From Candidatus Curtissbacteria bacterium RIFCSPHIGHO2_12_FULL_41_17 (lineage in GTDB: Bacteria > Patescibacteriota > Microgenomatia > Curtissbacterales > GWA2-41-24): DNA of 64,000 bases. Below are positions 30,355-58,300 of the stretch, piece by piece. Positions within the stretch are counted from its first letter, which is position 1. Every line of letters starts with the position of its first letter. The DNA lies in assembly GCA_001774945.1 (NCBI GenBank), contig MFBL01000043.1:2782-66781 (forward strand), read 5' to 3'. Below the pieces are notes generated by a model. That model saw only the letters and a program-made list of their open reading frames with translations, had not been told where the DNA came from and searched no databases. The translations under genes were made by a program, and so were the position numbers.

Positions 30355-30357
30355 TTA

Positions 30358-31602: not shown

Positions 31603-31603
31603 A

Positions 31604-34769: not shown

Positions 34770-34777
34770 AAGCTTTA

Positions 34778-43162: not shown

Positions 43163-44089
43163 ATGTCAAAAGAGTCTACCAAAAGCCAACCTCAAAAACA
43201 AAAAATTTTAGTATACGGATCAACAGGCTTGGTTGGTACAAAGATAATTCAGCTATTATCTGATAAGTTTAGAATAGTAGCTCCGCCGCATTATCAACTT
43301 AATTTAGTAAATAAAAAGAAAATTTCAAGCCATCTCAAAGATGTATTACCAGACCAAATAATTTATGCTGCCGGTTTAACAAAAGTTGACAGTGCACAAG
43401 CAAATCCAAAAAAGGCATTTTATCTCAACTACCAAATTGTTGACTTTATAGCCTCGCAGGCATCGAAGTTAAAAGTGCCTTTTCATTACTTATCGACAGA
43501 TGCCGTTTTCAATGGCACAAAAACTAATGCTCCTTATAGAGAAGACGATAAACCAAATCCCATCTCTGTTTATGGAGAGAGTAAATTAAAAGGCGAGATC
43601 GCAACACTTTCTGCCTCTTCCCGAAATTCAGTCATTAGAACGGAACTAATTTACACATCTTATTTCCCGCACAAAAAAGATTTTGCCAGAGTCGCTTACG
43701 AGTCGCTTAAAAGAAAAGAAATGTTTGATGGAATTATTGATCAGGTGATAACACCCACTTTTGTTGACGATATAGTATACTCAATTAGCTTAATTTTTGA
43801 AAAAAAAGCAAAGGGTATCTATCATGTTGCCTCTACAGATGCTACAACAAACTACGGTTTTTTGATTAAGCTAGCAAAAATATTTAACTTTGACGAAACG
43901 TTAATCAGAAAAGTAAAATTCGACGATTTCTTTGCTGGTAAAATTGCCAAAAGAGCGAAATATTGTTGGCTCGATACCGCCAAATTTCAAAAAGAGTTTA
44001 AAGACCACCCACTCAGAAGAATTAAAAACAGTTTGCTGGATTTTAAAAAACAGCTATCCAAGGTAGAATTACTGCCTATCGACCTTTAA
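43163..44089 (+). CDS. RmlD-like NAD(P)H-dependent sugar-nucleotide 4-reductase (dTDP-4-dehydrorhamnose reductase family).
   Basis: Carries ILVYGSTGLVG, YGESKLKGE and a RmlD_sub_bind-like length. Confidence 0.55.
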   Translation: MSKESTKSQPQKQKILVYGSTGLVGTKIIQLLSDKFRIVAPPHYQLNLVNKKKISSHLKDVLPDQIIYAAGLTKVDSAQANPKKAFYLNYQIVDFIASQASKLKVPFHYLSTDAVFNGTKTNAPYREDDKPNPISVYGESKLKGEIATLSASSRNSVIRTELIYTSYFPHKKDFARVAYESLKRKEMFDGIIDQVITPTFVDDIVYSISLIFEKKAKGIYHVASTDATTNYGFLIKLAKIFNFDETLIRKVKFDDFFAGKIAKRAKYCWLDTAKFQKEFKDHPLRRIKNSLLDFKKQLSKVELLPIDL

Positions 44090-44794
44090 TCTTTGCAAGA
44101 TACCCCATAGGTACCAATGGATATATTTGGGCAGCCATTTCATCATTTTAAATTTTGAAGTACCCTGAGTTCTTTCTCTCCAGATAGTTGGAACGTCACA
44201 GATTTTTGCTCCCATTGAGTTTGTTTTAATTAAAATTTCCATCGAAAATTCCCATCCCCCGTTAGATTCAATTTTAATTTTTTTCAAAAAGTCTTTTTTA
44301 TACATTTTAAAACCATTGGTTAAATCTCTCGTCGATATTCCTAAAAGAACCATAGTCAATAAACCTGCAACTCTCGACAATGTTGTCTTGATAAACCCGC
44401 CGCCGATTTTGCTGCCGCCTTTTGAGTATCGGGTTGCGCAAACAATATCAAAGCCTGCTTGGATTTTTGAATACATCTTATTTATCGTCTTCGGATCATC
44501 AGCCAAGTCTGCAGGCATGACAACACAAATTCCAAAAGACGACGTTGTAAACCCTGTCTTTACTGCATTTATTATCCCTCGTCCGAATTTGTTTCTGACA
44601 AGTTTAACGTTTGGAAATTTCTTACGGATTAATTTTACCGGTTCAATTGTAGTATCTTTATCAAAGTCATAGACAATTAAAACCTCATGCTTTGCGTCAA
44701 CCATTTTTTCGATTTGCTTAATCTGCTCGGTGATATTTTCGCCTTCGTTATAAACGGGTAAAATAATGGAAATTCCTTCAGCGGACTTTTTCAT
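44069..44794 (-). CDS. GT2 polyprenyl-phosphate glycosyltransferase (DPM1-like).
   Basis: Carries ISIILPVYNEGENI and VMPADLADDP. Its 3' end overlaps the convergent upstream gene by 21 bp. Confidence 0.65.
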   Translation of the reverse strand: MKKSAEGISIILPVYNEGENITEQIKQIEKMVDAKHEVLIVYDFDKDTTIEPVKLIRKKFPNVKLVRNKFGRGIINAVKTGFTTSSFGICVVMPADLADDPKTINKMYSKIQAGFDIVCATRYSKGGSKIGGGFIKTTLSRVAGLLTMVLLGISTRDLTNGFKMYKKDFLKKIKIESNGGWEFSMEILIKTNSMGAKICDVPTIWRERTQGTSKFKMMKWLPKYIHWYLWGILQRLKVDRQ

Positions 44795-44804
44795 AGCATT
44801 GCTT

Positions 44805-46514
44805 TTACCTCCCTACTTTCAATACGTCAAAATATGGACCAGCGCGATCCATAATAAAAAGTGGAAAAACGTAGTGCGTATCAACTAAAAGCTCGGGAAT
44901 TTTTCCATCATAAATAGAATTTTTTGTAGGCGAAAAATGCGCCGCTAGTTCAAATCTGCCTGTCTTATCCAGGTTCAATAATCTTCCGTCAGACCCGAGG
45001 TAGGAATCAACAACATATCTTACCGGAAATACAGCTTTTGCTTTTTCAAAAGCTTCCATCTTGGATAACGATTTATTAGAGTAGTCATATATATATAAAA
45101 CTTCCCGAACATTAATAGGGTATGATTTTCCTACTAATTTTTCAGCACGCATGTAGTAAGATTTGTTATTTAATCTGATAATTTTTCGGGCATCTGTCCC
45201 GGAAACATAGCCTAAAGCTCTTTTTTCGGTTGAGGCAATGGGAATTCTAATGTCTATATTTTTATCAACCCATTTTCTTACTTGAACAAATGTTGGTTCT
45301 CTCAGAAGCAGAAGATTCCAATAAATTGAGTTAAAAGAGGCAACAAAAATTATAAAAACAGTAAATGGTATCCTTAACATTTTATAGCGTTCTATTAAGT
45401 TAGCTGCCTCAAATCCGGCAAATAAAGGTAATAATGAAATGCCAACCAAAGAATATCTCAAAAAAGGAGGAAAGATACTTACAATCAGCGAAAAATTAAA
45501 TATTATAAATATTAAAAAAGCGAAAAGAATCCGCTTATCCCTACTTTTTTCAAATCTTCCCAGGATGAATTTAATGAAAAAGACGGCGGTCAAAATTACT
45601 ATTAGTCCGTCTGTTAGAAAAAAATCTTTGGTCATTCTAGGTACCGACATTTCCCTTAAAGATATAAGTGGATTTTTTAGAAGGCCTACAGTAGGATTTG
45701 CAGGATCAATAATTTTTAAAAAATTCCCTCCAACTGAGAAATAATTTAAAACTAGAACCAAGAATAACCACAATAATGCTCCGAAAATATGATGAATTGA
45801 AATAATTTTTTTTCCAGCAAAAATTCGTATTAAACCCACCAATAAAATAACTATGCCCGCTATTTGATGAAAACCGAAGGCGATAGAGGCAAAAAATACA
45901 GAGAGAAGAAGATTCCGCAGCGCATGGTTTCTCTTTAAAACGCTTCTTAATACAAACAAAGTTGCCAGCAGGCTGAAAAAAATTGCCCCTGACCAACCTC
46001 TAGCAAGATGAGAAATATGAACTAGATTAAAAGAGACTGCCGCAAAAAAACTCGCCCACAAGGCTATCTTTCTGTTTTTAAACAATTCCACACAGAGAAG
46101 ATAAATAGCAATTATGCTTAATGTTCCAAACATTGCCGAAATTATTCTAGGTATGAAGAGCATATAGCCTTCTTGGGTTACTAATAAAAACTCCATATCT
46201 TGTACCGAGTGAATCTTTCCGGTTAGCAAAAGTACACTAAATGCCAAAAGAAGGAAAGGAATCTGGAGATAAGCTCCAAGCGGTCCGTAATTCCCGATAG
46301 TAAAAGGAGTTTTTTCAGCTAGCATATTTAAAGCGCTTTGATGGTATATTGCTTCATCATTTGAAACAAAAAGTATAGGAAAGCCAATAGTTAGATTATT
46401 GATCCTTAACAAAAAGCCCAGAGTAATAATTGCAAGAAGAATATACTTCGGCTGCCGAAAAACAGGTTTAGTTAGAATATTTCTTAAAAAATTCCTCAAA
46501 TTTCGAAACAACAT
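44805..46514 (-). CDS. ArnT/PMT-like GT-C membrane glycosyltransferase.
   Basis: Carries SNDEAIYHQSALNMLAEKTP, comparable to the ArnT DE-x-RYAEISREML loop. It has more than ten TM helices and a C-terminal soluble domain. Confidence 0.5.
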   Translation of the reverse strand: MLFRNLRNFLRNILTKPVFRQPKYILLAIITLGFLLRINNLTIGFPILFVSNDEAIYHQSALNMLAEKTPFTIGNYGPLGAYLQIPFLLLAFSVLLLTGKIHSVQDMEFLLVTQEGYMLFIPRIISAMFGTLSIIAIYLLCVELFKNRKIALWASFFAAVSFNLVHISHLARGWSGAIFFSLLATLFVLRSVLKRNHALRNLLLSVFFASIAFGFHQIAGIVILLVGLIRIFAGKKIISIHHIFGALLWLFLVLVLNYFSVGGNFLKIIDPANPTVGLLKNPLISLREMSVPRMTKDFFLTDGLIVILTAVFFIKFILGRFEKSRDKRILFAFLIFIIFNFSLIVSIFPPFLRYSLVGISLLPLFAGFEAANLIERYKMLRIPFTVFIIFVASFNSIYWNLLLLREPTFVQVRKWVDKNIDIRIPIASTEKRALGYVSGTDARKIIRLNNKSYYMRAEKLVGKSYPINVREVLYIYDYSNKSLSKMEAFEKAKAVFPVRYVVDSYLGSDGRLLNLDKTGRFELAAHFSPTKNSIYDGKIPELLVDTHYVFPLFIMDRAGPYFDVLKVGR

Positions 46515-47769
46515 ATCTTAATTTTGCTTTATCGTTTCCTGGATAAACTCCGATCCAAAAACCATTATTCATAATTAAATCACTATTTTTTAAATCTGTG
46601 ACCACACGGTGTTTAATATTAAGGTATGCAGGGTGGCGAAGTAAGTTTCCTGCAAATAAACTTCTGGTTTCAATTTTGTTATCCTGAAGAAAGTTAACGA
46701 TATCCAGTCTGGAAAACGGGGCAGTTTTTTTGACTACAAGCATGAACCCGAACCAGCAGGGTTCGGTTTTTTTATCCCACGCGGGCAGGATGAAAAACTT
46801 TTCGTATTTTTTTAAATTTTTATACAAATAATCGAAATTTTTTCTGCGTGTTTTGATAAATACCGGCAGTTTCTCAAGCTGAGCTATGCCGATTGCAGCG
46901 GCTATGTCGGTACTTTTTAAATTGTATCCAATGTGTGAATAGGTATATTTATGGTCGTAGCCATACGGGAGTTTGCCCAATTTGTAGCCAAATCTTCTGC
47001 CGCAGCGGTTGTCTTGCCCCGTTCTGCACCAGCAATCTCGTCCCCATTCACAAAATGAGTTAACAATAACGTAAAGGTCTGGATTGTTGGTGACAACTGC
47101 TCCTCCTTCACCCATAGTTATCTGGTGCGCAGGATAAAAGGAAAATGTTGCCAAATCCCCAAAACTGCCGACATACTCTCCTAAGTATTTTGAACCCAGC
47201 GCATCGCAGCAGTCTTCGATTATCCAAAGATTATATTTCTTGGCAACTTTCTGAACTTCTTTCATGTCGAACGGATTGCCAAGAGTATGAGCCATCATTA
47301 TGACTTTAGTTTTTTTTGAAACGGCCTTTTCAATAAGTTTGGGAACTGCATTTCTGCTGGCTGCATCTATGTCGACAAAAACGGGAACTGCACCGAACTG
47401 AATTATCGGGTTGATTGTCGTTGGGAAAGAACAAGCGACAGTTATGACTTCATCACCCGGCATAATTCTTCTTTTGCCAAGTTTTATAGAGGTGAGAGCC
47501 GAAAATGCTGCCAAATTGGCGCTCGAACCGGAGTTTACAAGTGTCGTGTATTTGACTCCCAGAAATTTAGAAAATTTTTTACAAAATTCTTCTGCAAAGT
47601 GTCCTTCTGTCAGCCAAAATTCTAAAGACGCCTCGACTGCTTTTTCAATTTCTTTCTGGTCAAAAACCCTGCCGGAAACTTTAACTGGGGTTACTCCCGG
47701 AATGAAGTTCTGGGGTTTGTGATATTTTAAGTAGTGTTTTTTTATCAGGGATTTTGGAATTACTGTCAT
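46468..47769 (-). CDS. rfbH: E1-type PLP/PMP-dependent 3-dehydrase (CDP-6-deoxy-L-threo-D-glycero-4-hexulose-3-dehydrase, RfbH/DdhC-like).
   Basis: The DegT fold has FSFYPAHQITMGEGG, where His (codon at 47125..47127) replaces the PLP lysine. It also carries C188-X57-C246-X1-C248-X7-C256, the E1 [2Fe-2S] motif. Confidence 0.7.
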   Translation of the reverse strand: MTVIPKSLIKKHYLKYHKPQNFIPGVTPVKVSGRVFDQKEIEKAVEASLEFWLTEGHFAEEFCKKFSKFLGVKYTTLVNSGSSANLAAFSALTSIKLGKRRIMPGDEVITVACSFPTTINPIIQFGAVPVFVDIDAASRNAVPKLIEKAVSKKTKVIMMAHTLGNPFDMKEVQKVAKKYNLWIIEDCCDALGSKYLGEYVGSFGDLATFSFYPAHQITMGEGGAVVTNNPDLYVIVNSFCEWGRDCWCRTGQDNRCGRRFGYKLGKLPYGYDHKYTYSHIGYNLKSTDIAAAIGIAQLEKLPVFIKTRRKNFDYLYKNLKKYEKFFILPAWDKKTEPCWFGFMLVVKKTAPFSRLDIVNFLQDNKIETRSLFAGNLLRHPAYLNIKHRVVTDLKNSDLIMNNGFWIGVYPGNDKAKLRYVVSKFEEFFKKYSN

Positions 47770-48740
47770 TTGGTCAGATCTTCACCAACAGATTTCTTTT
47801 TTTCATTTAATATCTCATCAATAATGTATACGGGTCTTGACTTAGTTTCTTCAACGATAACTTGGATATATTTACCTATAATACTAATTGCCAAAAGCTG
47901 AATTCCCCCAAAGAAGACAATACTAACAACAATGGTTACGGCAGCTTTAATAGGATTTCCAAATAACAAGAAAATCAGCAGATAAGCAATGATAAAAAGA
48001 AATGAAAGTAAGACCAGAATAAAGCTAATATAGACCATCAGATCCAAAGGTAAATAGGAAAAACCGAAAAAGCTTCTTTCGGCATGTTTAATGTACCTGA
48101 AAAAATTATATGAACTCTTCCCCCTTTTTCTCTTTTGTCTTTTATATTCCACGTAATCAGTTTTAAATCCAACCCAGGCCCTAAGGCCCCTAAACATCCT
48201 GTACTTTTCCGGCAATGATTGAATTGCCCTTAAAACTTTTCTGTCTAACAGTCCATAACTTCCACTATTTACTGGAATGTATATGTCCGAAATTGCTTTA
48301 AAAATTTTGTAATAAGTTTTTCTTAAAAGAGTCATTATCAAACTATCCTCAATTTTTGTACGTATTCCCACCACAACATCAAACCCTTTTTCCCAGCGGT
48401 CGATAAACTGCGGTATCAAATGAGACGGATCTTGCAAATCAGCCTCGTAAATAATTACTGCATCGCCGTTAGTCTTATCTAGTCCTGCATGAACTGATGC
48501 TTCCGGGCCGAAATTCCTTGACAAAAAAATGCCAACCACATTTTTGTCTTTTTTTGCAAGATCTCGGATTTCTTTTCTCGTATTATCCAAACTTCTATTG
48601 TCAACAAAAACAAATTCGTAGGCATAATTTTTAATTTTAGTAATTACATTTTTTAATTCCCTATAAACTTGGAGGACATTCTCCTCCTCATTAAAACAGG
48701 GAATTACAAAAGAAATAATTTTTTTCCTATTACTTATCAT
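47766..48740 (-). CDS. GtrB/ArnC-like GT2 polyprenyl-phosphate glycosyltransferase with C-terminal TM helices.
   Basis: Carries ISFVIPCFNEEENV and IYEADLQDP. Two C-terminal hydrophobic helices follow (ISFILVLLSFLFIIAYLLIFLLF...). Confidence 0.7.
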   Translation of the reverse strand: MISNRKKIISFVIPCFNEEENVLQVYRELKNVITKIKNYAYEFVFVDNRSLDNTRKEIRDLAKKDKNVVGIFLSRNFGPEASVHAGLDKTNGDAVIIYEADLQDPSHLIPQFIDRWEKGFDVVVGIRTKIEDSLIMTLLRKTYYKIFKAISDIYIPVNSGSYGLLDRKVLRAIQSLPEKYRMFRGLRAWVGFKTDYVEYKRQKRKRGKSSYNFFRYIKHAERSFFGFSYLPLDLMVYISFILVLLSFLFIIAYLLIFLLFGNPIKAAVTIVVSIVFFGGIQLLAISIIGKYIQVIVEETKSRPVYIIDEILNEKKKSVGEDLTK

Positions 48741-49432
48741 TTGCCTTGTAGTAAATATTTTTTTAAGTCAAAAAATTTCTCAATAATGAGATCTGCATTA
48801 GATAAAAATTTTGCGGGTAACGTTGACCGTATCGCAATACAGTAAAGCCCAGCGCCTGAAACCGAAAGTATTCCTAGTGGAGCATTTTCAACTGCTACTG
48901 CCTCATGTGATTCTACTTCGAGCATCTCAAGAGCCCTCTTATAAGGGTCAGGACTAGGCTTTACTTTTAAATTCATATCTCCTGTTATCAAGACATCAAA
49001 AAGAGCCAAAAGTTTTCCAGGAGCCGTCTTGGCAAGTCTCAATTTAGTTGCTCCACTAACTAGCGCCAATAATTTCTTTGAGGCTTTTAGCCTTTTTAAT
49101 ATTTGTAATACCCCTGGATATAATCTTAATTTATTAAAATTAACATAGACATTGTCTTTATCGCGGGCAATTTTTAAAATTTGACTTTCCGAAAGTTTCA
49201 GTTTGTTATTTAAAACGATGGTTCTGGCAACTCCAGCTGGGTTCATTCCTTCAAGTGGTAGATAGTCATTTTTCCGAAGCGAAACCTTTTGCTTCAAAAA
49301 AACTTTACGCCAAGCACGAAAATTATCATACATACTATCAACTAAAACCCCATCATAATCAAATAATACTGCTTTTAACCTCTTGGGAAATTGTCGTTTA
49401 TTCACACTGACCTTATCTTCTCCAGATTTCAA
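48737..49432 (-). CDS. HAD-superfamily hydrolase (beta-phosphoglucomutase-like phosphatase).
   Basis: Carries AVLFDYDGVLVDS (motif I) and VSGATK. Confidence 0.65.
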   Translation of the reverse strand: MKSGEDKVSVNKRQFPKRLKAVLFDYDGVLVDSMYDNFRAWRKVFLKQKVSLRKNDYLPLEGMNPAGVARTIVLNNKLKLSESQILKIARDKDNVYVNFNKLRLYPGVLQILKRLKASKKLLALVSGATKLRLAKTAPGKLLALFDVLITGDMNLKVKPSPDPYKRALEMLEVESHEAVAVENAPLGILSVSGAGLYCIAIRSTLPAKFLSNADLIIEKFFDLKKYLLQGK

Positions 49433-50318
49433 CCCTATTCAGATTTAACGAGTTTTTATCAATCTTCGAAATATTTTTTTGGTACCACCTGTACAAGTAT
49501 TCAAGTTTTTCATCAAAATTGCTAAATTTCAAACCTATTATTTCATCTTTAAGTCTTTGGTTATCACACGTATATTCATTATTTAACCCACTTTTCATAA
49601 TTTTTATAGGTAATTTTTTACCAGAAATTTTGAGAATTTTTTGGGCAATTGAAACAAGATCAATAGGCACACCCGTACCTACGTTATAAGTTTTAAATTT
49701 CCCATCATGCGTCAGGAAATGGTCTAAAATCTTAGTAAAGTCCTCGACATAGAGATAGTCGAAAAATATATTCTGATTAATAGTAATCGGCATATTAAAA
49801 ATTACTTTACAGATTGTGTTGGAAATAAAACGGTATTGCCAATTCTCATATTTCCCATAGAGTCCAAAGATTCTTAAGTTAACTATATTTTCAGACTTTT
49901 CGATGTACTTTGCGCAAATGTACTTGTAAAGGCCAAAATCATCCGATGGGATTCTTGAATCGAAATCAGTTTCTTTAACTTTGCTAATTGAAAGTTGCTT
50001 GCCATATTCGGCGCCTGAGCCGACTAAAATCATTTTTTTAAAAAACTGATCATTTCGAACAATATTGAAGAACATTCTTAGATTATAAGAAGTTACATGC
50101 TCAAAATTTGCTTCTTTCTGATTTCCACCGCGATTTGCTAAATGAATTACTATATCAATAGGGTTCTTTTTCATGAATTTATAAACAGCATCAGAGTCGA
50201 CAAGTTCCAATTCATCGTGCGAAGGTGCAATGAACTGATATTTTTTATCCAAAAGTTCAAAAATATTTCTGCCAATGAAGCCTTGTTTACCCGTTAAAAA
50301 AATTTTGAGCTTTGCCAT
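49413..50318 (-). CDS. NAD-dependent epimerase/dehydratase family protein.
   Basis: Carries IFLTGKQGFIGRNI and YKYICAKY. Confidence 0.55.
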   Translation of the reverse strand: MAKLKIFLTGKQGFIGRNIFELLDKKYQFIAPSHDELELVDSDAVYKFMKKNPIDIVIHLANRGGNQKEANFEHVTSYNLRMFFNIVRNDQFFKKMILVGSGAEYGKQLSISKVKETDFDSRIPSDDFGLYKYICAKYIEKSENIVNLRIFGLYGKYENWQYRFISNTICKVIFNMPITINQNIFFDYLYVEDFTKILDHFLTHDGKFKTYNVGTGVPIDLVSIAQKILKISGKKLPIKIMKSGLNNEYTCDNQRLKDEIIGLKFSNFDEKLEYLYRWYQKNISKIDKNSLNLNRVEIWRR

Positions 50319-50333
50319 TTCCAGGTTGAAGTT

Positions 50334-51377
50334 TTATAGCGAAAATTTAATATTATACTGAGAAATTAGTTTTTTGAATTCTTGGTAGTCGAAGTTACTT
50401 ATCGGAATTCCTGTTTTTATTCTAATCTTATATACTTCCTTTTCTGGGTCACCGGCGACCATAACTCTTTGATCGTTTGAGGCTACAGACTTCTTGCGAA
50501 GTGCATCGCAAAGGTCTCTTAGGCTCCTTTTAAAAATTTCCAACCTTATATAACGAGAAATATCTATAGCCATAAAGAAATGTCCGAGTCTACGTTTCTT
50601 ATTAGTGAGTGGGTACATTGGTACGATTTTTCTCCCGTAAGGCATTCCAGATAAAAGGGAGCATAAAATTTCAATAGCTAAAGCTAGTCCATACCCTTTA
50701 TACCCACCTATTGGATAGAGCCCAACTGCTTTCATGGGATCAGTAGTGATTTTTCCGTTTTTATCAACTGCCCAACCAAAATCGAGGGCCTTTTTTTTAG
50801 ACTTATAAACAAGAATTTTATTCCAGGAAATTTGACTGGTGGCCATGTCTAAGCACAAGGGTTCTTCACCTGTCATTGGAGCAGCAAAGGAAATCGGATT
50901 GGTTCCTAGATATGGTTTTCTTCCGCCGTATGGCACTACCAATGAATCAACATTGGTAAAAGCAAAACCGATCATGTTCTTCTTTGCTGCCAAAAGCGTA
51001 TAGATGGCAGCTGCCCCGAAATGTGACGAATTTCTGACGCTGACTGCTCCTAGCCCTGTTTTTTTAGCAAGCATAGTTGCTTTCATCATAGCTTCGATGC
51101 CAGCAGCAATTCCGAAGCCATCATCAGCATCAAAGATTCCACAAGAAGGGGCCGTTTTAGTAAAAATAAATTTTGGATTCTTTTTAATTCTTCCTCTCTG
51201 AGTAGCACGTATGTAATGGGGAATAAGTCTGATCCCATGTGAATCGACGCCCCTCAAAGACGTATCCACTAGGCCATTGACTACTAGAGTGCTAATTTTC
51301 CTAGAGACTCCCACTGTTTTAAATAATTCGTAACCAAAATTGCGAAGTTTAAGATGGGGAACTAATTTTTCTCGCAT
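50334..51377 (-). CDS. Ldh_2-family (malate/L-lactate/sulfolactate dehydrogenase type 2) 2-hydroxyacid dehydrogenase.
   Basis: Carries GVDSHGIRLIP, HFGAAAIYT and GGYKGYGLALAIE, all family blocks. Confidence 0.7.
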   Translation of the reverse strand: MREKLVPHLKLRNFGYELFKTVGVSRKISTLVVNGLVDTSLRGVDSHGIRLIPHYIRATQRGRIKKNPKFIFTKTAPSCGIFDADDGFGIAAGIEAMMKATMLAKKTGLGAVSVRNSSHFGAAAIYTLLAAKKNMIGFAFTNVDSLVVPYGGRKPYLGTNPISFAAPMTGEEPLCLDMATSQISWNKILVYKSKKKALDFGWAVDKNGKITTDPMKAVGLYPIGGYKGYGLALAIEILCSLLSGMPYGRKIVPMYPLTNKKRRLGHFFMAIDISRYIRLEIFKRSLRDLCDALRKKSVASNDQRVMVAGDPEKEVYKIRIKTGIPISNFDYQEFKKLISQYNIKFSL

Positions 51378-53216
51378 CTATTCCTCATCGATTGGTTTAA
51401 TAATCATGTTCTTCAGAAACTCTTCACGGGGCAAAAATGGGTACATATCTTCCATAGGTTTGGAGATAACTTTCCCGTCGCTCCTGACGTATGAAGTCAC
51501 TTTTGGAATTAAAGGTTGTTTAGGGCCCATCATAATTTCGCAAATAAATGGACCTGGTTTGGAAAGTACATATTTTAATTGTCTTTTTAAGTTTTTATGG
51601 TTCTCGATTTTTATGGAAGGAATACCGTAGGCATAGGCAATTTTTTGCATGTCTGGGAAACTAATGCCACTTTTAGGATTTGCTCCGACATAATGTCCTT
51701 TAAAAAAGTTTTCTTGAGTAATGCGAATTGCTAAATAGCCGTCATTATTGAGTACGAAAATTTTGATAGGCAACCGATGATGAACAATAGTTTGTAATTC
51801 TTGAATGTTTAATTGAATACTGCCATCGCCCGCAAGACAAATAACTCTCTTTTTGCTATTGGCAATACAGGCTCCGATGGCAGCTGGTAAATCATAACCC
51901 ATCGAAGCACAGCCAACATTGCCTATAAGCCTTTGATTTTTCTTGAGTCTTATACATTGGTAGGTGCAGGTGAAGGCAGTGCCGTCTCCTACTACTATCA
52001 CTTCATCATCTTTCATCACGTCAGAGAGGATATCTATAAAGTAGTAAGAATTAACATATTTTTTTTGTTTTTTTTGCTCGGGCAAAACTGGCAGATATTT
52101 TTTTCTAATCCGCTTACAGTAATCATGCCATAGGTCCCATGAAGGCAATCCCTTGTTTTTAATTTGTCGACTAAGCTCTTTAATAAAGACTTTTGCATCA
52201 GCACAAATCGGTAAATCCGCATGAACCGTTTTTTTAACAAGTTCTGCTTTGTCAATGTCAATCATCACATGTTTGGCTTCCCTGGCAAAAGTTTTATAGG
52301 AAAAACTAACTACCCAAATTGAGAGTCTTGATCCAATGCTGATTAATAAATCACAATTCTGAACGACAAAATTGCCAACTCGTTCCCCAAAGATTCCCGG
52401 ACGGCCCAAGAATAACCGGTGGTCAGAAGGAATCAAATCATGGGCAGTAATGCCCGTTACTACTGGAATATTCAGTTTTTGAATTAATCGACCGAAATCG
52501 TCAACTGCTCCGGCAAGTCTGACGCCATTACCAGCCAGAATCAATGGTCTTTTTGACGCAAAAATTAACTTGACAGTTTGAGCAACCTTCTTTTTGACTT
52601 TACCTTGACTGTCAAGATCAAATTTAACCTCCCGTGGATTAAAGGGCTTTAACAAAGCAGGATTTACTCTTGCTGCTTGAATATCAAGGGGAATATCAAT
52701 CCAAACCGGACCTGGTCGACCGGACATTGCTAGATAAACTGCTTTTTCAAGATGACACCGAATCTCTTGAGGTTTGGTTACTGTCACTGCATATTTGGTT
52801 ACTGGCTTAACCATTGACACTATTGGTAGTTCTTGTATGCCAATCTGCCTGACCTTAGATTTACCTATCGTTGTTTCTAACTTAGGTTGCCCTGAAATAA
52901 ATAGTGTCGGGATTGAATCAAGCCATGAACCAATAAGACCGGTTAAGGTATTAGTGCCGCCTGGCCCGGCGGTAACGACACAAACACTCAATTTTCCGGA
53001 AAGTCTTGTATAGCTTTCGGCAGCCATCGCCGATGCTTGCTCATGGTGATTGCAAAAGTAGCGTATTTTTGAATTAGAACCAAAAGATTCATTAAGATGC
53101 ATGGCGTTGCCGCCAGTGATCATAAATACATCGCGAATGCCAAGGTCCACCAAATAAGAGACAAGATAATCAGAAAGTTTTATGAGATTATTTGATTTTT
53201 TGAGTTTTTCTGTCAT
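51378..53216 (-). CDS. Thiamine-pyrophosphate-dependent enzyme, acetolactate synthase large subunit-like (about 610 aa).
   Basis: Has three ALS-like domains: TPP_N (ITGGNAMHLNESF), central (VTGITAHDL) and TPP_C (GCASMGYDLPAAIGA...AGDGSIQLNIQEL). The ORF is open to 53333, but the likely start is MTEKLKK at about 53216. Confidence 0.65.
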   Translation of the reverse strand: MTEKLKKSNNLIKLSDYLVSYLVDLGIRDVFMITGGNAMHLNESFGSNSKIRYFCNHHEQASAMAAESYTRLSGKLSVCVVTAGPGGTNTLTGLIGSWLDSIPTLFISGQPKLETTIGKSKVRQIGIQELPIVSMVKPVTKYAVTVTKPQEIRCHLEKAVYLAMSGRPGPVWIDIPLDIQAARVNPALLKPFNPREVKFDLDSQGKVKKKVAQTVKLIFASKRPLILAGNGVRLAGAVDDFGRLIQKLNIPVVTGITAHDLIPSDHRLFLGRPGIFGERVGNFVVQNCDLLISIGSRLSIWVVSFSYKTFAREAKHVMIDIDKAELVKKTVHADLPICADAKVFIKELSRQIKNKGLPSWDLWHDYCKRIRKKYLPVLPEQKKQKKYVNSYYFIDILSDVMKDDEVIVVGDGTAFTCTYQCIRLKKNQRLIGNVGCASMGYDLPAAIGACIANSKKRVICLAGDGSIQLNIQELQTIVHHRLPIKIFVLNNDGYLAIRITQENFFKGHYVGANPKSGISFPDMQKIAYAYGIPSIKIENHKNLKRQLKYVLSKPGPFICEIMMGPKQPLIPKVTSYVRSDGKVISKPMEDMYPFLPREEFLKNMIIKPIDEE

Positions 53217-53973
53217 GATGCGAAATTGTGAGGTATATGATATCATCACGTGCCAAAATTTTCGGCCGGCTTTGTATCTCCGAAAGCAAAGCAATTTCCC
53301 CACAGCTAAGAAGAATTTCTCCTCGATCATCAACTAATCCTCCTTTTAATATGCCCACTAAGTGAGCTGATTCTGTTTTCAACTGTTGATCAATATCCAA
53401 TCCTCTTTCAAAAGAAATTAAAGTTAAATTGCAATCACCAATAAGTTTTCTATCTTTTTTCTTTAAAGGTTCTTTATGAAAATGAACATATCGATATTGC
53501 TTTGTTTTATTAGTCATCTTACTTTGTCCTTCATACTCTTGATTTTCTCGGCCATATTCGTCTTTTAATCTAATTAAGTCTTTCTTATTCGGGGGTGATT
53601 CAATTTCCATAATAAACGCCCCCCCCCTGGAGATAGTTTTAGTCCTGTGAAAGACGGCTTCCTCTATACTTATTCCTTCACACTTACCAAATTCAAACCA
53701 GCCTTCAAGTGTTGATACAAGAACCCTTCCAGAAAGCACCATCAGCGAAGTTTTTTTATTGGGATGGCAATGCATTGAGGTTGCGTGATTATATTTCAAA
53801 AAGAGAACCCATACTGCCACTTCCGGATTTTCATACATTAAATATTCATATCCCCAAGGCTTATTAACAATTATTCCTCTATAATTAAAAGCGTCTTTAC
53901 TATGAGGAACTGCAGTCCTAAGACGAGATAAGTTTTCGATATCCGATTTGGATCTAAATATCCGCTTAATCAT
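53188..53973 (-). CDS. Cupin-domain protein (type II mannose-6-phosphate-isomerase-like).
   Basis: VNKPWGYEYLMYENPEVAVWVLFLKYNHATSMHCHPNKKTSLMVLSGRV matches the ManC C-terminal cupin pattern. Confidence 0.45.
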   Translation of the reverse strand: MIKRIFRSKSDIENLSRLRTAVPHSKDAFNYRGIIVNKPWGYEYLMYENPEVAVWVLFLKYNHATSMHCHPNKKTSLMVLSGRVLVSTLEGWFEFGKCEGISIEEAVFHRTKTISRGGAFIMEIESPPNKKDLIRLKDEYGRENQEYEGQSKMTNKTKQYRYVHFHKEPLKKKDRKLIGDCNLTLISFERGLDIDQQLKTESAHLVGILKGGLVDDRGEILLSCGEIALLSEIQSRPKILARDDIIYLTISHHDRKTQKIK

Positions 53974-54507
53974 TTAGGATATTTTACTTATCAGGCTGAC
54001 GGTAGTTTTCATCCAACTAGCAAGATTGTGTGGATGATCCGAAGTGATAATGTTTCCGTCAACGACTACAGCCTCTTGGTGGTAGATGGCTCCAGCGTTG
54101 ATAAGGTCATCTTTCATGCCGATGTAACAAGTCGCATTCTTTCCTTTTAAAATTCCTGCCGAGATTAAAACCCATGGGCCATGACAAGTACTTGAAACAA
54201 TCTTTCCAGTTTTATTCATCTTGCGCACAAATTGCAAAATTTTTTTTACTTGTCTGACCCTATCTGGAGCTTCATGCCCACCCGGGATAATCACTGCGTC
54301 GTACTTTTTAACAGATAGATCATTTATAAGTACTGTAGGTTTTATAGGGTAGCCATGTTTGCCTTTGATCTCACTATCGCTACTGGTGGCTATGTCAGTT
54401 TTTATTTTGGATTCTTGGAGTCTAAAATAAGGGTAGATTACTTCCGGGTCTTCAAAGCCCGGTCCGGTAATAATTACTGCCTTTTTTATTTTCATTCTTG
54501 CAACCAA
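53974..54507 (-). CDS. DJ-1/PfpI-family protein (class I glutamine-amidotransferase-like fold).
   Basis: Carries AVIITGPGFED, IIPGGHEAPD and SSTCHGPWVL with the nucleophile Cys. Confidence 0.6.
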   Translation of the reverse strand: MVARMKIKKAVIITGPGFEDPEVIYPYFRLQESKIKTDIATSSDSEIKGKHGYPIKPTVLINDLSVKKYDAVIIPGGHEAPDRVRQVKKILQFVRKMNKTGKIVSSTCHGPWVLISAGILKGKNATCYIGMKDDLINAGAIYHQEAVVVDGNIITSDHPHNLASWMKTTVSLISKIS

Positions 54508-55283
54508 TGAGACTTATTTTTATCTACTAGGTCGGCTAAAAACAGGTAATCACGATCTGTATCGAGCCATCGCCAAAATCCATGATGTGGGTAAATTGCT
54601 AGCTGGCTATCTTTGATCAAATTTTCAAAGACTTCTGTTTCAAGCATGCATTCATTAAATGGTGAAAGATAGGAAAAGACTTGACTTTTAAAAACCATGA
54701 AACCGCCATTAATGTAACGCTCAATCAAGTGAGACTTAACATTGGCCGCATTATAAAAACCAATTGCCAAATTTTTCTTTACCAAAAGTTCTCCTATCCG
54801 GAAAGGAGGAACCACCCCACTGATTGTGGCGATTTTTTTATTTTTTTTATGAAATTTCAGAAGTTTTTCTAAATTGACATCCGCTAAACAGTCAGCATAA
54901 GTCACCATAAAATCTGATTCCTTGTCCAGGTATTTCTTACATCTGGCAATACGCGAACCAGTCAAAGCTGCTTCCCCAGTATCTACAAGTGTTATTTTCC
55001 ATTCAGATTCGCCATGCCTACTTAATTGTTCAAAGTCATCGCCTTTGGAAAGCTCGATGCGTACATCACCAGTATACAGATCATAATTGGCAAAAAAATC
55101 TCTAATCATTTCTCCCTTGTAGCCAAGCGCCAAAATAAATTCATTAAAGCCAAACAGTGAATATCGCTTCATTACATGCCAAACAATAGGCCTATGTCCA
55201 AGCTTGACCATCGCTTTTGGGATGTAGTCAGATTGTTGAGCAAGTCTAATGCCTCTTCCGCCGCACAGAATTACTACTTTCAT
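54492..55283 (-). CDS. Glucose-1-phosphate cytidylyltransferase paralog (RfbF-like).
   Basis: MKVVILCGGRGIRL...PKAMVKLGHRPIVWHVMKRYSLFGFNEFILALGYKG is collinear with Salmonella RfbF. Confidence 0.7.
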   Translation of the reverse strand: MKVVILCGGRGIRLAQQSDYIPKAMVKLGHRPIVWHVMKRYSLFGFNEFILALGYKGEMIRDFFANYDLYTGDVRIELSKGDDFEQLSRHGESEWKITLVDTGEAALTGSRIARCKKYLDKESDFMVTYADCLADVNLEKLLKFHKKNKKIATISGVVPPFRIGELLVKKNLAIGFYNAANVKSHLIERYINGGFMVFKSQVFSYLSPFNECMLETEVFENLIKDSQLAIYPHHGFWRWLDTDRDYLFLADLVDKNKSHWLQE

Positions 55284-55359
55284 GATTGGATGTCATTATA
55301 TAATAATTTATGTCTTCATCAAAAAATAGATGAGACCATATCAGTAGGAATGTTAAAAG

Positions 55360-55770
55360 ATGAATTCGGTGTTGTTTAAATCTACTCAAGGAGAAAACTT
55401 TAGACTTAGTAGCAAATTTATATTTGTTGGTATTTTAAATACTATCGTTGGCTATGGACTTTTCGCCCTGCTTATTGATCTTAATATTTTCTATCTTTTA
55501 TCTCTAACCATTTCCCATATCGCTGGTACAATTCATAGTTATCTTTGGAATCGACTTTTCACCTTTAAGTCAAAAAGCAGCATAGTAAAGGAGATAACCA
55601 AATTTGTCACTGTTTATACTTTTATTTATCTTACTAATTTTGTTTTACTATACGTTGCCGTGGATTTATTGCAGCTTAATACTTTGATTGCTCAACTGTT
55701 TATTTTGGGGGTAGTAACAGTGATCTCATTTTTAAGCCAAAGATACTGGACTTTTAGAAGATATTATTAG
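55360..55770 (+). CDS. GtrA-family small membrane protein.
   Basis: A 136-aa protein with four TM helices. It carries FIFVGILNTIVGYGLFALLI and is divergent from an RfbF gene. Confidence 0.6.
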   Translation: MNSVLFKSTQGENFRLSSKFIFVGILNTIVGYGLFALLIDLNIFYLLSLTISHIAGTIHSYLWNRLFTFKSKSSIVKEITKFVTVYTFIYLTNFVLLYVAVDLLQLNTLIAQLFILGVVTVISFLSQRYWTFRRYY

Positions 55771-56735
55771 CTAGAACTTTTAACTTCTTGAAAATACTCC
55801 TTGTACCATTCGTAAATATCTTTGATCGTTTTATCGATGTTACTTGCCGGCTTCCAGGCAAGCATTTTTCTTATTTTATTAAAATTAATTGATTGCTGGG
55901 GTATTTCATTAATTGCGCTTTTGGTAATCCGGTACTTTATTTTTCTACCCAATTTTTTTTCAATCTTGCCCAAAAGTGCAAGGACCGAAAGATTTTCGCG
56001 TGATGATACATTGAAAACTTCGCCCTTTATTTTTTGGATATTTTTGGAGCAGACAATCAAAGCCTCAACAATATCTTTAACATAAACGTAATCTCTTATG
56101 TATTTGCCATCGCTTCTGACATCTAAGACATCTCTTTTGACAATTGCCTTGAGCGCTCCAGGGATAATCCGGCTAAAATTGATGTCACCTTCGCCATAGA
56201 CATTTCCGAACCTTACCACAACGGTAGGCAAATTATACGTCTTAAAATACGTAGTGGTTATAAGATCACAGGCGGCTTTTGACGTTTCGTAAGGATGATC
56301 TCCCGAAAGTGGATCCTTTTCAGATGCTTTAGGAATTTTCCCATAGGCTTTATCAGATGAAACAACAATTATTCCTTGAACTTTTCCATATAATCTTGCA
56401 GCCTCCAGAACATTAGCAGTGCCTATGATATTAGTTTCAAAAGTTTCCAGTGGGTTATAATAAGCGGTTGGTACTATCGATTGGGCAGCCAGATGGAAAA
56501 TGAAATCAATTTCGTATTTAGTGACAATGTCCAGTGTCCTTTTGAAATTTTTCAGATCTTTCTGGACTAAAATTACATATCTTGCAAGTCTTTGGCGCAA
56601 AAAATAAGACTTTGGATTTAGACTTTGGTAGGGGACAATAACATTTGCCTTGTCGTTAATTAACCTTTTAACTAGATGACTTCCTATAAATCCCGTTCCT
56701 CCAGTAACTAAAACATTTTTTCCCGTTAATCCCAT
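55767..56735 (-). CDS. CDP-glucose 4,6-dehydratase-like SDR (RfbG-like).
   Basis: Carries VLVTGGTGFIGSHL, SSDKAYGK and YETSK. It lies adjacent to rfbF. Confidence 0.6.
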   Translation of the reverse strand: MGLTGKNVLVTGGTGFIGSHLVKRLINDKANVIVPYQSLNPKSYFLRQRLARYVILVQKDLKNFKRTLDIVTKYEIDFIFHLAAQSIVPTAYYNPLETFETNIIGTANVLEAARLYGKVQGIIVVSSDKAYGKIPKASEKDPLSGDHPYETSKAACDLITTTYFKTYNLPTVVVRFGNVYGEGDINFSRIIPGALKAIVKRDVLDVRSDGKYIRDYVYVKDIVEALIVCSKNIQKIKGEVFNVSSRENLSVLALLGKIEKKLGRKIKYRITKSAINEIPQQSINFNKIRKMLAWKPASNIDKTIKDIYEWYKEYFQEVKSSS

Positions 56736-57505
56736 ATTTTCCAGGCAGGGTTTTCCTTCCAGAAGTTATTTAAGTCTTGGACATCTTGATAGGTATCCAT
56801 TGAATGAAAAAATTCCTTATGGTAGTAAACCGTCAGTTGTCTTTTTTCTATTAATTTGTAGAAAACATCTTCTATCATCGAATCCGGTTCAATATAATTA
56901 AAGATGCTTTTTTTAAATACCATAAATCCAACATTAATTAAATTCTTAATTTTTGCACGCTTTTCAAATTTTTTAGCCATTCCGTTTTTGTCAATTTCTA
57001 AACCGCCAAATTTTAAAATTGGGTGAGCTACTGTTACAGTGCCGATAGCCTTTTTGTTTTTGTGGTAACTTAGAAGATTGGCAATATTAATATCAGCAAC
57101 TCCATCACCATAAGTAACCATGAAATCATTGTCATTGATGTATTTTTTTAACCTTCTTACCCGTTCTCCAGTCAGCGATTCTTGCCCGGTATCAACGAAA
57201 GTAATTCTAAAATCATCTTTTTTTTCACCTTTATGATGTTTAATGCTGTGTTTATCCGTCACGAGCGTAAAATCTCCGTCATAATATTTTTTGTTAACAA
57301 AATAGTCTTTAATTAGATTTCCTTTATATCCGAGAGCAATAATAAAGTCACGGAATCCGAAGTGGGCGTAAATTTTCATGATATGCCAAAGGATAGGTTT
57401 ACCTCCAACTTCCACCATCGGTTTAGGTTTAAATTCTGTTTCTTCTTTAAGACGATAGCCAATGCCCCCGCAAAGTATTACGACTTTTATTCTACTGGCT
57501 CTCAT
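56726..57505 (-). CDS. rfbF: Glucose-1-phosphate cytidylyltransferase (RfbF).
   Basis: VVILCGGIGYRLKEETEFKPKPMVEVGGKPILWHIMKIYAHFGFRDFIIALGYKG is nearly collinear with Salmonella RfbF. Confidence 0.75.
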   Translation of the reverse strand: MRASRIKVVILCGGIGYRLKEETEFKPKPMVEVGGKPILWHIMKIYAHFGFRDFIIALGYKGNLIKDYFVNKKYYDGDFTLVTDKHSIKHHKGEKKDDFRITFVDTGQESLTGERVRRLKKYINDNDFMVTYGDGVADINIANLLSYHKNKKAIGTVTVAHPILKFGGLEIDKNGMAKKFEKRAKIKNLINVGFMVFKKSIFNYIEPDSMIEDVFYKLIEKRQLTVYYHKEFFHSMDTYQDVQDLNNFWKENPAWKIWD

Positions 57506-58274
57506 TTTTTGAACCCTTTACGTCATCTAAATAATGACTAATAACCGTTTTTGTTTCTCCTTGCATTTTTATCTTGCCACCATCCAGATAAATTGCTTTG
57601 GAACAGATAAGTTTTACCGCATCCATGTTGTGGGAAACAAACACAATTGTTTTCCCGCTTTTTACAAATCTTTTCATTTTATCGAGGCATTTCTTTTGGA
57701 AATTTTGATCACCGACTGCTAGAACTTCATCTATTAAAAGTATTTCCGGATCCATGAAAGACACAACCGAAAAGCCAATTCTAGCATACATGCCAGAAGA
57801 ATAACGTTTTATAGGAGTGTCGATAAATTTCTCGATGCCGGAAAATTTTACGATGTCGGCATATTTTCCTTTAATCTCTTGTTTTTTCATTCCTAAAATT
57901 GCTCCATAAAGAAAAATATTCTCTTTGCCGCTTAACTCGGGGTGAAGACCGGCCCCAAGCTCAATAAAAGCCCCGACTTTTCCATTTACTGTTATCTGGC
58001 CGCTTTTGGGATAGGTAATTTTAGAAATAAGTTTCAGAATGGTGCTTTTTCCGGACCCGTTTCTGCCGATTATCCCCAGACACTCTCCCTCATGTACAGT
58101 AAAGCTTAGATCATTTATTGCCAATAGAGTTTCTCTCTGAAGGGTTTTGTGTCTATTTTTGCCAATTAATTTTCCTAAAAAAATCCCAAAATCATCCGAA
58201 AAGCGTCCATATTTCATTCTTGAGATTAAATAACTTTTTGTAACATTTTGAAACTTTATGGCTATGTTGTCCAT
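57492..58274 (-). CDS. ABC transporter ATP-binding protein (Wzt/TagH-like polysaccharide export).
   Basis: Walker A GRNGSGKST, the LSGG-like signature SSGMYARIGF, and Walker B LLIDEV. Confidence 0.75.
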   Translation of the reverse strand: MDNIAIKFQNVTKSYLISRMKYGRFSDDFGIFLGKLIGKNRHKTLQRETLLAINDLSFTVHEGECLGIIGRNGSGKSTILKLISKITYPKSGQITVNGKVGAFIELGAGLHPELSGKENIFLYGAILGMKKQEIKGKYADIVKFSGIEKFIDTPIKRYSSGMYARIGFSVVSFMDPEILLIDEVLAVGDQNFQKKCLDKMKRFVKSGKTIVFVSHNMDAVKLICSKAIYLDGGKIKMQGETKTVISHYLDDVKGSKNESQ

Positions 58275-58300
58275 TTATTCGAAAAGTAAATTTTTCTTTT

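Follow-up and report, generated by a model that had tools for sequence, protein, structure and literature searches.

Gene organization of the locus

The DNA studied here (the window, i.e. the whole stretch analysed, 64,000 nucleotides of contig MFBL01000043.1 of Candidatus Curtissbacteria bacterium RIFCSPHIGHO2_12_FULL_41_17) carries a glycan island, in which a thiamine-diphosphate (ThDP)-dependent enzyme resembling acetolactate synthase (ALS) is encoded among genes for nucleotide-sugar synthesis and glycosyl transfer. The base composition of the window is about 36% GC, and the nearest database proteins come from Microgenomates, Roizmanbacteria, Woesebacteria, Berkelbacteria and other Patescibacteria. 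From position 57505 down to 44069 the genes overlap or are separated by gaps of 0-29 nt, which is the pattern expected of a single operon; we consider it probable that 44069..57505 is one glycan operon for making and exporting an acyl-branched 3,6-dideoxyhexose of the yersiniose class.

The genes of the operon lie on the minus strand unless stated otherwise. First is a gene for an RfbF-like glucose-1-phosphate cytidylyltransferase (56726..57505; PF00483; TIGR02623, 276.8 bits, slightly under the cutoff of 300), the candidate for the first pathway step (CDP-glucose), followed by a CDP-glucose 4,6-dehydratase-like (RfbG) extended short-chain dehydrogenase/reductase (SDR) (55767..56735; PF16363 and PF01370), whose best NCBIfam match is TIGR02622 (CDP_4_6_dhtase; 182 bits, cutoff 278). 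A small membrane protein of the GtrA family, a putative polyprenyl-phosphate-sugar flippase, is encoded on the plus strand (55360..55770; PF04138, 88 bits). Next are a second RfbF-like nucleotidyltransferase (NT2; 54492..55283; TIGR02623, 248 bits, under the same cutoff), a DJ-1/PfpI-family protein (53974..54507; PF01965, 170 bits; TIGR01382, 154 bits, above the cutoff of 139), a 261-aa bicupin of a new family (53188..53973), the ThDP enzyme (51378..53216), and an Ldh_2-family 2-hydroxyacid dehydrogenase (50334..51377; PF02615, 352 bits). The remaining genes encode a further extended SDR (49413..50318; PF01370), a HAD-IA hydrolase of phosphatase, pyrophosphatase or mutase type (48737..49432; PF13419 and PF00702, DxD motif), a family-2 glycosyltransferase (GT2) with C-terminal membrane helices (47766..48740; PF00535), RfbH/E1 (46468..47769), a polytopic membrane protein (44805..46514), and, as the final gene of the minus-strand run, a second, DPM1-like GT2 (44069..44794; PF00535, 80 bits). 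A Wzm/Wzt-type ABC exporter (57492..59083) adjoins the operon.

The original prediction for this DNA had singled out the HAD, Ldh_2 and ThDP genes, with an SDR between the first two, as a minus-strand group that might produce a non-sugar substituent for the glycan. These open reading frames (ORFs) and their domains were confirmed, as were the GT2, GT-C-type and several DegT genes nearby; three co-conserved partners, DJ-1/PfpI, the bicupin and NT2, had not been part of that prediction. For the ThDP enzyme, the mechanical ORF extends to 53333; the ATG at 53216 was taken as the start, because the resulting 612 aa fit the length of the homologs (604-606 aa) and the onset of similarity to the best solved relative.

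The ThDP enzyme and the CDP-3,6-dideoxyhexose genes

The ThDP enzyme comprises the three domains TPP_enzyme_N, TPP_enzyme_M and TPP_enzyme_C, with a GDG-x26-NN motif (canonical GDG) at residue 463, and the HHEQ motif with its catalytic Glu is invariant in an alignment of 12 homologs. It is thus the full-length ALS-type protein, rather than a ComDE/Ppd-type protein, that had been predicted. Its Pfam architecture is identical to that of ALS, and homologs are annotated by JGI as 'acetolactate synthase large subunit', as would be expected for an ordinary acetolactate/acetohydroxyacid synthase (AHAS) of branched-chain amino acid or acetoin synthesis that lies in the island by coincidence. However, the score against the ALS model TIGR00118 is 372.7 bits, compared with an NCBIfam cutoff of 538.35, and the scores against all PRK ALS models are far under the cutoffs; the case of a true ALS with ilvN or ilvC nearby, which the original prediction had set against its own proposal, is not what was found, since no ilvN, ilvC or ilvD was detected among the scanned ORFs of the window and none of the three in the syntenic loci. 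Together with the synteny with sugar genes that is kept across phyla, and with a solved relative that is much closer than any AHAS (below), these results leave an ordinary ALS extremely improbable. Scores were also under the cutoffs of the models for sulfoacetaldehyde acetyltransferase (Xsc; 242 bits, cutoff 620), glyoxylate carboligase (Gcl; 249 bits, cutoff 791) and 5-guanidino-2-oxopentanoate decarboxylase (259 bits, cutoff 500).

The best PDB match by far is JanthE of Janthinobacterium sp. HH01 (8rph/8rpi/8rpj; 460 bits), compared with about 278 bits for plant AHAS and 267 bits for PpYerE (5ahk); in the multiple alignment JanthE is approximately 37% identical to the window enzyme. JanthE is a YerE-like enzyme that couples 2-oxoacid donors to ketone acceptors, and a validated aldehyde-ketone carboligase (PMC12188165); in vitro it prefers C4-C5 2-oxoacids (PMC12247030). 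As judged from these matches, the window enzyme is predicted to be a carboligase of the YerE/JanthE kind, not an ALS, and to belong to the JanthE branch rather than to the YerE branch.

The DegT-type gene next to the GT2 gene (46468..47769) had been counted among the aminotransferases of the island. Several DegT genes do lie nearby, but the reading of this adjacent one as an aminotransferase did not hold: its product matches NF011936 with 664 bits (cutoff 423), has the exact [2Fe-2S] motif C188-X57-C246-X-C248-X7-C256, and carries His215 at the position of the pyridoxal-phosphate-binding lysine of aminotransferases. These features identify it as the CDP-4-keto-6-deoxyglucose 3-dehydrase (RfbH/E1), which would make the 3,6-dideoxy-4-keto acceptor. 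The RfbF-like gene at 56726..57505 is syntenic in five related loci (L001, L002, L086, L090 and L093), and orthologs of the 4,6-dehydratase-like SDR in syntenic loci are 52-62% identical. For the second SDR (49413..50318), in which GxxGxxG and YxxxK are visible and which lies one gene downstream of the ThDP gene, orthologs (at least 35% identity) adjoin the ThDP gene in 14 of the 41 loci of diverse phyla in which Ldh_2 and HAD are missing; from this context we infer a YerF-like reductase of the branch ketone.

These 41 loci, i.e. those with full 10-kb flanks, come from a survey of the ThDP family with one genome per GTDB species, which gave at least 592 confirmed relatives and for which 80 loci were kept and searched by tblastn with every protein of the window. 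The hosts comprise Campylobacter concisus, Nitrosospira, Clostridium, Bacteroidales, Acidobacteriota, Planctomycetota and others. True RfbH (at least 45% identity) was present in 28 of the 41 loci, an RfbF-like gene in 32, an RfbG-like SDR in 33, and an ArnC-like GT2 in 24; HAD and DJ-1 were found in one locus each, and Ldh_2 in none. The ThDP family is hence a hallmark of CDP-3,6-dideoxyhexose clusters, and Ldh_2 and HAD stand outside its general context. That the general neighbours of the family are RfbF, RfbG and RfbH, and not Ldh_2 or HAD, is the main reason for our branched-sugar reading of the locus.

The same result bears on the route proposed originally, modelled on the synthesis of coenzyme M (ComA, ComB, ComC, ComDE) or of 2-aminoethylphosphonate (AEP), in which a phospho-hydroxyacid is converted via the hydroxyacid and the 2-oxoacid to an aldehyde, and this to a taurine-, AEP-, lactyl- or glyceryl-type substituent of the glycan. 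The enzyme classes do resemble ComB, ComC and ComDE, in that genes for an Ldh_2-family dehydrogenase and a ThDP enzyme adjoin and a phosphatase gene lies close by; the window Ldh_2 has ComC (2x06; 196 bits) as one of its best solved matches and as a fairly close structural relative, Ldh_2 and HAD are fused in one locus (L083), and aminotransferases are plentiful in the island. Nevertheless, the sulfolactate dehydrogenase equivalog NF040650 gives only 234 bits for the window Ldh_2 (cutoff 500), the three-domain ThDP protein is a carboligase of the YerE/JanthE type and not a ComDE, and its family adjoins RfbF/RfbG/RfbH in most phyla without Ldh_2 or HAD, i.e. in a nucleotide-sugar context. ComB belongs to a protein family other than HAD (Pfam PF04029). 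No ComA, ComB, PepM, Ppd- or ComDE-type enzyme or cysteate synthase was found among the scanned ORFs of the window, and the neighbouring 'DegT' is the E1 dehydrase and not a transaminase. No scanned ORF matched PEP_mutase either; the sole phosphoenolpyruvate (PEP)-related domain belongs to a different family and occurs in a protein with an unusual architecture, a 607-aa fusion of HAD_2 with a PEP-binding PEP-utilizers_C domain (17580..19403, plus strand), which is flanked by genes for a UDP-GlcNAc 2-epimerase, a PylC-like ATP-grasp protein, a GFO/IDH/MocA oxidoreductase and a UDP-sugar dehydrogenase. We therefore regard both the coenzyme-M-like and the AEP-like variant as very unlikely. What stands of the proposal is the handling of a 2-oxoacid; its decarboxylation to an aldehyde substituent is not supported.

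Within the ThDP family, the window enzyme differs from the relatives of plain CDP-dideoxyhexose clusters in its active site. At positions 121, 268 and 293 (JanthE numbering), which were flagged by docking in the JanthE study, the widespread enzymes that are accompanied by RfbF, RfbG and RfbH only have Asp, an aliphatic residue and Arg (D121 in 33 of 37, R293 in 33 of 37), whereas the clade of the window enzyme has Ile, Leu or Val, then Phe or Tyr, then Trp (I/F/W in the window enzyme itself), and JanthE has V/Y/P. The hydrophobic and aromatic residues at 121 and 268 are thus common to JanthE and the window enzyme; on the other hand, the ThDP motif of JanthE is an unusual CDG instead of the canonical GDG. 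In a neighbor-joining tree of 139 ThDP sequences (midpoint-rooted, without AHAS outgroup and without support values), the window enzyme falls in a 17-member clade, all members of which are associated with the accessory genes described below, and JanthE falls on the opposite side of the midpoint root. The closest relatives of JanthE among the fetched loci, L140 (46% identity) and L148 (44%), carry DJ-1, bicupin, Ldh_2 and HAD genes, which suggests that this set of genes may be the native context of JanthE.

The accessory module and the proposed supply of the branch donor

NT2, DJ-1, the bicupin, Ldh_2 and HAD constitute an accessory module that is restricted to certain lineages and goes with a separate carboligase clade, the one with the hydrophobic/aromatic active-site signature; an altered active site in the enzymes of module loci is what a different donor, or a difference in the precise acceptor, would lead one to expect. 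The gene order nucleotidyltransferase / 4,6-dehydratase / NT2 / DJ-1 / bicupin / ThDP / Ldh_2 / SDR / HAD / GT2 / RfbH is kept as a block in L001 (70% ThDP identity), L002 (Roizmanbacteria, 58%), L086, L093 and L168, and L085 (Harrisonbacteria) contains the same genes in another order; synteny persists at 49-70% ThDP identity. NT2 lies directly upstream of DJ-1 in eight loci (L001, L002, L081, L083, L086, L090, L093 and L168). The DJ-1 protein has a Cys-His nucleophile elbow, and its best PDB match is PH1704/PfpI (146 bits).

The 261-aa protein has no family match; a predicted structural model (predicted local distance difference test score, pLDDT, 89) shows a bicupin fold. The protein has 640 relatives, and its residues H68, H70 and H109 are invariant. 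Structural matches are generic only (cysteine dioxygenase, CDO; the CapF cupin domain; phosphomannose isomerase, PMI; lyxose isomerase). In a bicupin-anchored census of metagenome contigs with 22 well-flanked loci, DJ-1 was present in all 22, an ALS-like ThDP enzyme in 17, HAD in 16, Ldh_2 in three and a D-isomer-specific 2-hydroxyacid dehydrogenase (2-Hacid_dh) in two. Where bicupin and ThDP genes are adjacent, half of the pairs (26 of 52) are in-frame fusions, from which we infer that the bicupin is an obligate partner and acts directly with the carboligase. The HAD protein is most similar, among solved structures, to the inorganic pyrophosphatase BT2127 (78 bits), followed by beta-phosphoglucomutases (about 56 bits).

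The module is confined neither to CDP-dideoxyhexose pathways nor to bacteria. Bicupin-ThDP fusions are encoded in L008 (Nitrospinaceae), L014 (Nitrosomonadaceae) and L023 (Pacearchaeota), where no RfbF, RfbG or RfbH gene was detected by tblastn within 10 kb; the neighbours are radical SAM/B12 enzymes, methyltransferases, NUDIX and PhyH in L008, and radical SAM/B12 enzymes, DJ-1 and HAD in L023. On other metagenome contigs (L104, L109, L146, L125, L143 and others), such a fusion, about 850 aa long, directly precedes another ThDP enzyme of full length, HAD and DJ-1; the DegT-type genes nearby have only 25-30% identity to RfbH, and the acceptor at such loci is probably a different ketosugar. In L160 (OBEQ011167587.1, 8534..14290), with genes for DJ-1, an SDR, the bicupin, an MR_MLE enolase-superfamily protein and HAD, the ALS-like carboligase is replaced by another sugar-branching ThDP type, a split E1_dh/Transket_pyr pair; a B12-radical SAM gene and a GHMP kinase gene lie upstream. 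L084 (Omnitrophota, GCA_035390605) and L167 (Elusimicrobiota, GCA_037138235) contain such a split pair plus a separate ThDP enzyme of about 600 aa, together with DJ-1, Ldh_2, adh_short, methyltransferases and a zinc alcohol dehydrogenase, and additionally a cupin-ThDP fusion in L167 and an ErwI/ErwJ-like aldolase and dehydrogenase pair in L084; these two loci probably specify multiply branched sugars.

The catalytic motifs of Ldh_2 are intact, and the protein scores under the NCBIfam cutoffs for AllD, ComC, Mdh and YiaK. Alignments with ComC, AllD and MDH-like structures were also inspected for substrate-determining residues and gave no specificity assignment. Six of seven sampled Ldh_2 relatives (50-64% identity; Candidate Phyla Radiation (CPR), Omnitrophota, Elusimicrobiota and other lineages) sit in a module that also includes ThDP and DJ-1 genes. 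Together with the Ldh_2-HAD fusion, this agrees with the original view that the genes are functionally linked and do not belong to central metabolism. The phosphatase-dehydrogenase-decarboxylase chain itself, however, is not a conserved unit: the linkage is to the module, and HAD follows the bicupin core.

Three loci without Ldh_2 carry a 2-Hacid_dh gene in the module instead, located between DJ-1 and the bicupin in L081 and, in L090 and L091, at precisely the place of Ldh_2, following the ThDP gene. In the 17-member ThDP clade these loci branch from within the Ldh_2 loci at two separate points, which implies two independent non-orthologous displacements with the carboligase unchanged. The sole chemistry common to the Ldh_2 and 2-Hacid_dh families is the interconversion of 2-hydroxyacids and 2-oxoacids, and the donor of the carboligase is the only alpha-oxo carboxylate expected in the pathway; for these reasons Ldh_2 is proposed to supply the donor. 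In known acyl-branched sugar clusters a special donor is made by cluster-encoded enzymes, e.g. the ErwI aldolase and the ErwJ dehydrogenase (PMC9306805). Other clusters studied here have a variable gene near the carboligase, either an HMGL aldolase with an acetaldehyde dehydrogenase (the ErwI/ErwJ-like pair of L084) or the MR_MLE protein of L160. Characterized HMGL aldolase products are 2-oxoacids, which by analogy would support a donor-supplying role for Ldh_2. The MR_MLE protein is presumably of the acid-sugar-dehydratase type, characterized members of which yield 2-oxoacids.

That Ldh_2 oxidizes a 2-hydroxyacid to the 2-oxoacid donor has, in our assessment, about an even chance of being correct. 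Candidate pairs are lactate and pyruvate, glycerate or 3-phosphoglycerate and (phospho)hydroxypyruvate, and 2-hydroxybutyrate and 2-oxobutyrate, with pyruvate as the default donor candidate. The displacing 2-Hacid_dh is nearest to glycerate dehydrogenase (217 bits), 3-phosphoglycerate dehydrogenase (190 bits) and glyoxylate reductase, and not to D-lactate dehydrogenases, with all scores under cutoff, which may be taken as a weak hint at a glycerate-type substrate and a hydroxypyruvate donor.

A number of observations weigh against these interpretations. For the donor role, the seventh sampled Ldh_2 relative (50% identity) is located alone among housekeeping genes, and the subfamily does not appear sharply set apart from general malate/lactate-type enzymes. 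Five of 16 loci of the window's ThDP clade lack any 2-hydroxyacid dehydrogenase, so that the oxidation step would be dispensable, and the distribution of HAD follows that of the bicupin/DJ-1/ThDP core (16 of 22 loci) and not that of Ldh_2 (three of 22, plus two with 2-Hacid_dh). The typical specificities, L for Ldh_2 and D for 2-Hacid_dh enzymes, are awkward for one shared hydroxyacid precursor. For the pathway as a whole, the RfbF and RfbG scores are under the NCBIfam cutoffs, and some loci with bicupin, DJ-1 and HAD lack RfbH, so that the acceptor can differ in other lineages. A search for the 2Fe-2S motif of the E3/AscD reductase found none in the window and one case in 166 related loci; E3 is almost never clustered with these pathways, and its lack in the window is therefore uninformative. 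JanthE is only 37% identical to the window enzyme, the carboligase function of the clade is a predicted one, and the physiological substrates of JanthE have not been established (PMC12188165).

Several of these points would fit a version in which the branched-sugar pathway holds and Ldh_2 and HAD are not donor suppliers. The HAD protein, given its similarity to BT2127 and to beta-phosphoglucomutases and its occurrence with the core irrespective of a dehydrogenase, could be a BT2127-like pyrophosphatase that pulls both cytidylyltransferase reactions, or a hexose-phosphate mutase that provides glucose-1-phosphate; DJ-1 could detoxify reactive dicarbonyls arising from 4-ketosugar chemistry; and Ldh_2 could either act reductively on a branch that bears a carboxylate or serve to recycle a by-product. 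The absence of a dehydrogenase from the five clade loci agrees with this version, and the L- versus D-specificity would fit a reductive role, whose stereochemical outcome need not be common. Against it stand the departure of the carboxylate as CO2 in the ligation, which leaves the donor as the only alpha-oxo carboxylate expected, the 2-oxoacid-forming HMGL and MR_MLE enzymes near the carboligase in other clusters, and the single Ldh_2-HAD fusion; we regard this version as unlikely, and keep the donor-supplying role of Ldh_2 as our working assignment.

A more far-reaching proposal, which we put forward only tentatively and consider rather doubtful, is that the bicupin, DJ-1, HAD and 2-hydroxyacid dehydrogenase define an undescribed 'JanthE type' subclass of ThDP sugar-branching systems, in which a bicupin-coupled carboligase with a hydrophobic site would use a non-pyruvate donor made in situ from a (phospho)hydroxyacid, to build a branched sugar for the cell surface of CPR, DPANN, Omnitrophota and Elusimicrobiota members. 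If true, this subclass would reveal the long-sought physiological context of JanthE. A literature search did not find a module of bicupin, DJ-1, HAD and 2-hydroxyacid dehydrogenase described, and the accessory module is most likely a previously undescribed addition to a known kind of branched-sugar pathway.

Predicted pathway, related systems and further genes of the island

The core pathway was derived from family assignments and conserved context, following the scheme for acyl-branched sugars in which CDP-4-keto-3,6-dideoxyglucose and a 2-oxoacid are joined by a YerE-like enzyme and the product is reduced by a YerF-like enzyme (PMC9306805). By this prediction, the RfbF-like cytidylyltransferase would convert glucose-1-phosphate to CDP-glucose, the 4,6-dehydratase would form CDP-4-keto-6-deoxyglucose, and RfbH/E1 (pyridoxamine phosphate, [2Fe-2S]; with its electron donor absent from the window) would yield CDP-4-keto-3,6-dideoxyglucose. 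The ThDP enzyme would then decarboxylate a 2-oxoacid and add the acyl-anion equivalent to the C4 ketone, giving a tertiary alcohol with an acyl branch, and the SDR at 49413..50318 would reduce the branch ketone, as YerF does; the bicupin perhaps conditions the 4-ketosugar or the acyloin product, and HAD may act as phosphatase or pyrophosphatase in the module. The predicted product is most likely a CDP-3,6-dideoxy-4-C-acyl/hydroxyalkyl hexose.

For export, the ArnC/GtrB-like GT2 would load the sugar on polyprenyl phosphate, GtrA would flip it, and the GT-C protein would transfer it to a surface acceptor. The GT2 at 47766..48740, an ArnC/GtrB/PgfS-like candidate polyprenyl-phosphate sugar transferase, has its best NCBIfam matches to PgfS (236 bits) and ArnC (130 bits), both under cutoff, and the GtrA protein has a 58%-identical ortholog at the same place in L001. 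The polytopic protein at 44805..46514 has no Pfam match itself; its syntenic ortholog in L001 (43% identity) matches PF02366 (PMT) with 28.2 bits (cutoff 22.7), which points to a putative GT-C transferase of the PMT/ArnT-like type. The second GT2 (44069..44794) shows weak NCBIfam matches to PgfS and to dolichyl-phosphate hexose transferase. From these similarities, the export route probably consists of GT2, GtrA and GT-C. Gtr/Arn-type systems (GtrA, GtrB/ArnC, GtrC/ArnT; CsbB/GtcA/YfhO; Pgf) combine a membrane-anchored GT2, a protein of the GtrA family and a polytopic GT-C transferase, for all of which the operon has candidates, with the difference that the donor in the window would be a CDP-activated branched dideoxyhexose.

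Among the closest described pathways is that of yersiniose A in Yersinia pseudotuberculosis (RfbF/AscA, RfbG/AscB, E1/E3, YerE, YerF), which uses the same route via CDP-glucose, 4,6-dehydratase and E1 to the 3,6-dideoxy-4-ketohexose, pairs a ThDP enzyme resembling ALS with an adjacent NAD(P)H reductase, and yields a sugar of a surface glycan (PMC9306805). The window operon differs in a ThDP enzyme that is nearer to JanthE than to the YerE structure, in the extra Ldh_2, HAD, DJ-1, bicupin and second nucleotidyltransferase genes, in the lack of a nearby E3, in its CPR host, and in export by GT2/GtrA/GT-C, compared with O-antigen assembly in Yersinia. With the erwiniose pathway of Pectobacterium atrosepticum (ErwE, ErwF, ErwI aldolase, ErwJ dehydrogenase) it shares the principle that one cluster codes for the carboligase and for enzymes of a special donor (PMC9306805), and in L084 an ErwI/ErwJ-like pair lies beside DJ-1, Ldh_2 and ThDP genes; the candidate donor enzyme, however, is not an aldolase but belongs to the 2-hydroxyacid dehydrogenases (Ldh_2 in the window, 2-Hacid_dh in relatives).

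Acyl-branched sugars are rare surface determinants, and their ThDP carboligases are in demand as biocatalysts that make chiral tertiary alcohols. The locus places a probable branched-sugar pathway in the ultrasmall bacteria of the CPR, which probably attach to hosts by means of surface glycans; among the papers listed in a literature search, none pairs CPR terms with yersiniose or dideoxyhexose. The gene fusions and non-orthologous displacements give testable hypotheses on donor supply and on the native substrates of JanthE-type enzymes, and annotations such as 'acetolactate synthase' and 'DegT aminotransferase' are misleading in islands of this kind.

Other genes of the island concern further sugars. 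A sub-cluster of nonulosonic-acid type (28018..35482, minus strand) comprises genes for a formyltransferase (28018..28566), NeuB (28542..29750), a HisF/HisH-like pair (31604..33148), a GNAT protein (34215..34769) and a CTP_transf_3 protein of the CMP-sugar synthetase type (34778..35482). A protein of the NDP-hexose C-methyltransferase type (40853..42115, minus strand; Methyltransf_13/14 with a zinc-binding domain) implies that the island probably makes a second, methyl-branched sugar, too. On the plus strand, three successive PMT_2-type GT-C paralogs (5769..7457, 8349..10073 and 10057..11718) suggest several lipid-linked sugar transfers to surface acceptors; they are followed by a 631-aa ORF without a family match (11718..13613). 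Finally, a 413-aa protein with SGNH/AlgX-like and GDSL-like domains (60031..61272, minus strand), encoded between two SDR genes and next to the ABC exporter, is probably a glycan O-acetyltransferase or esterase.

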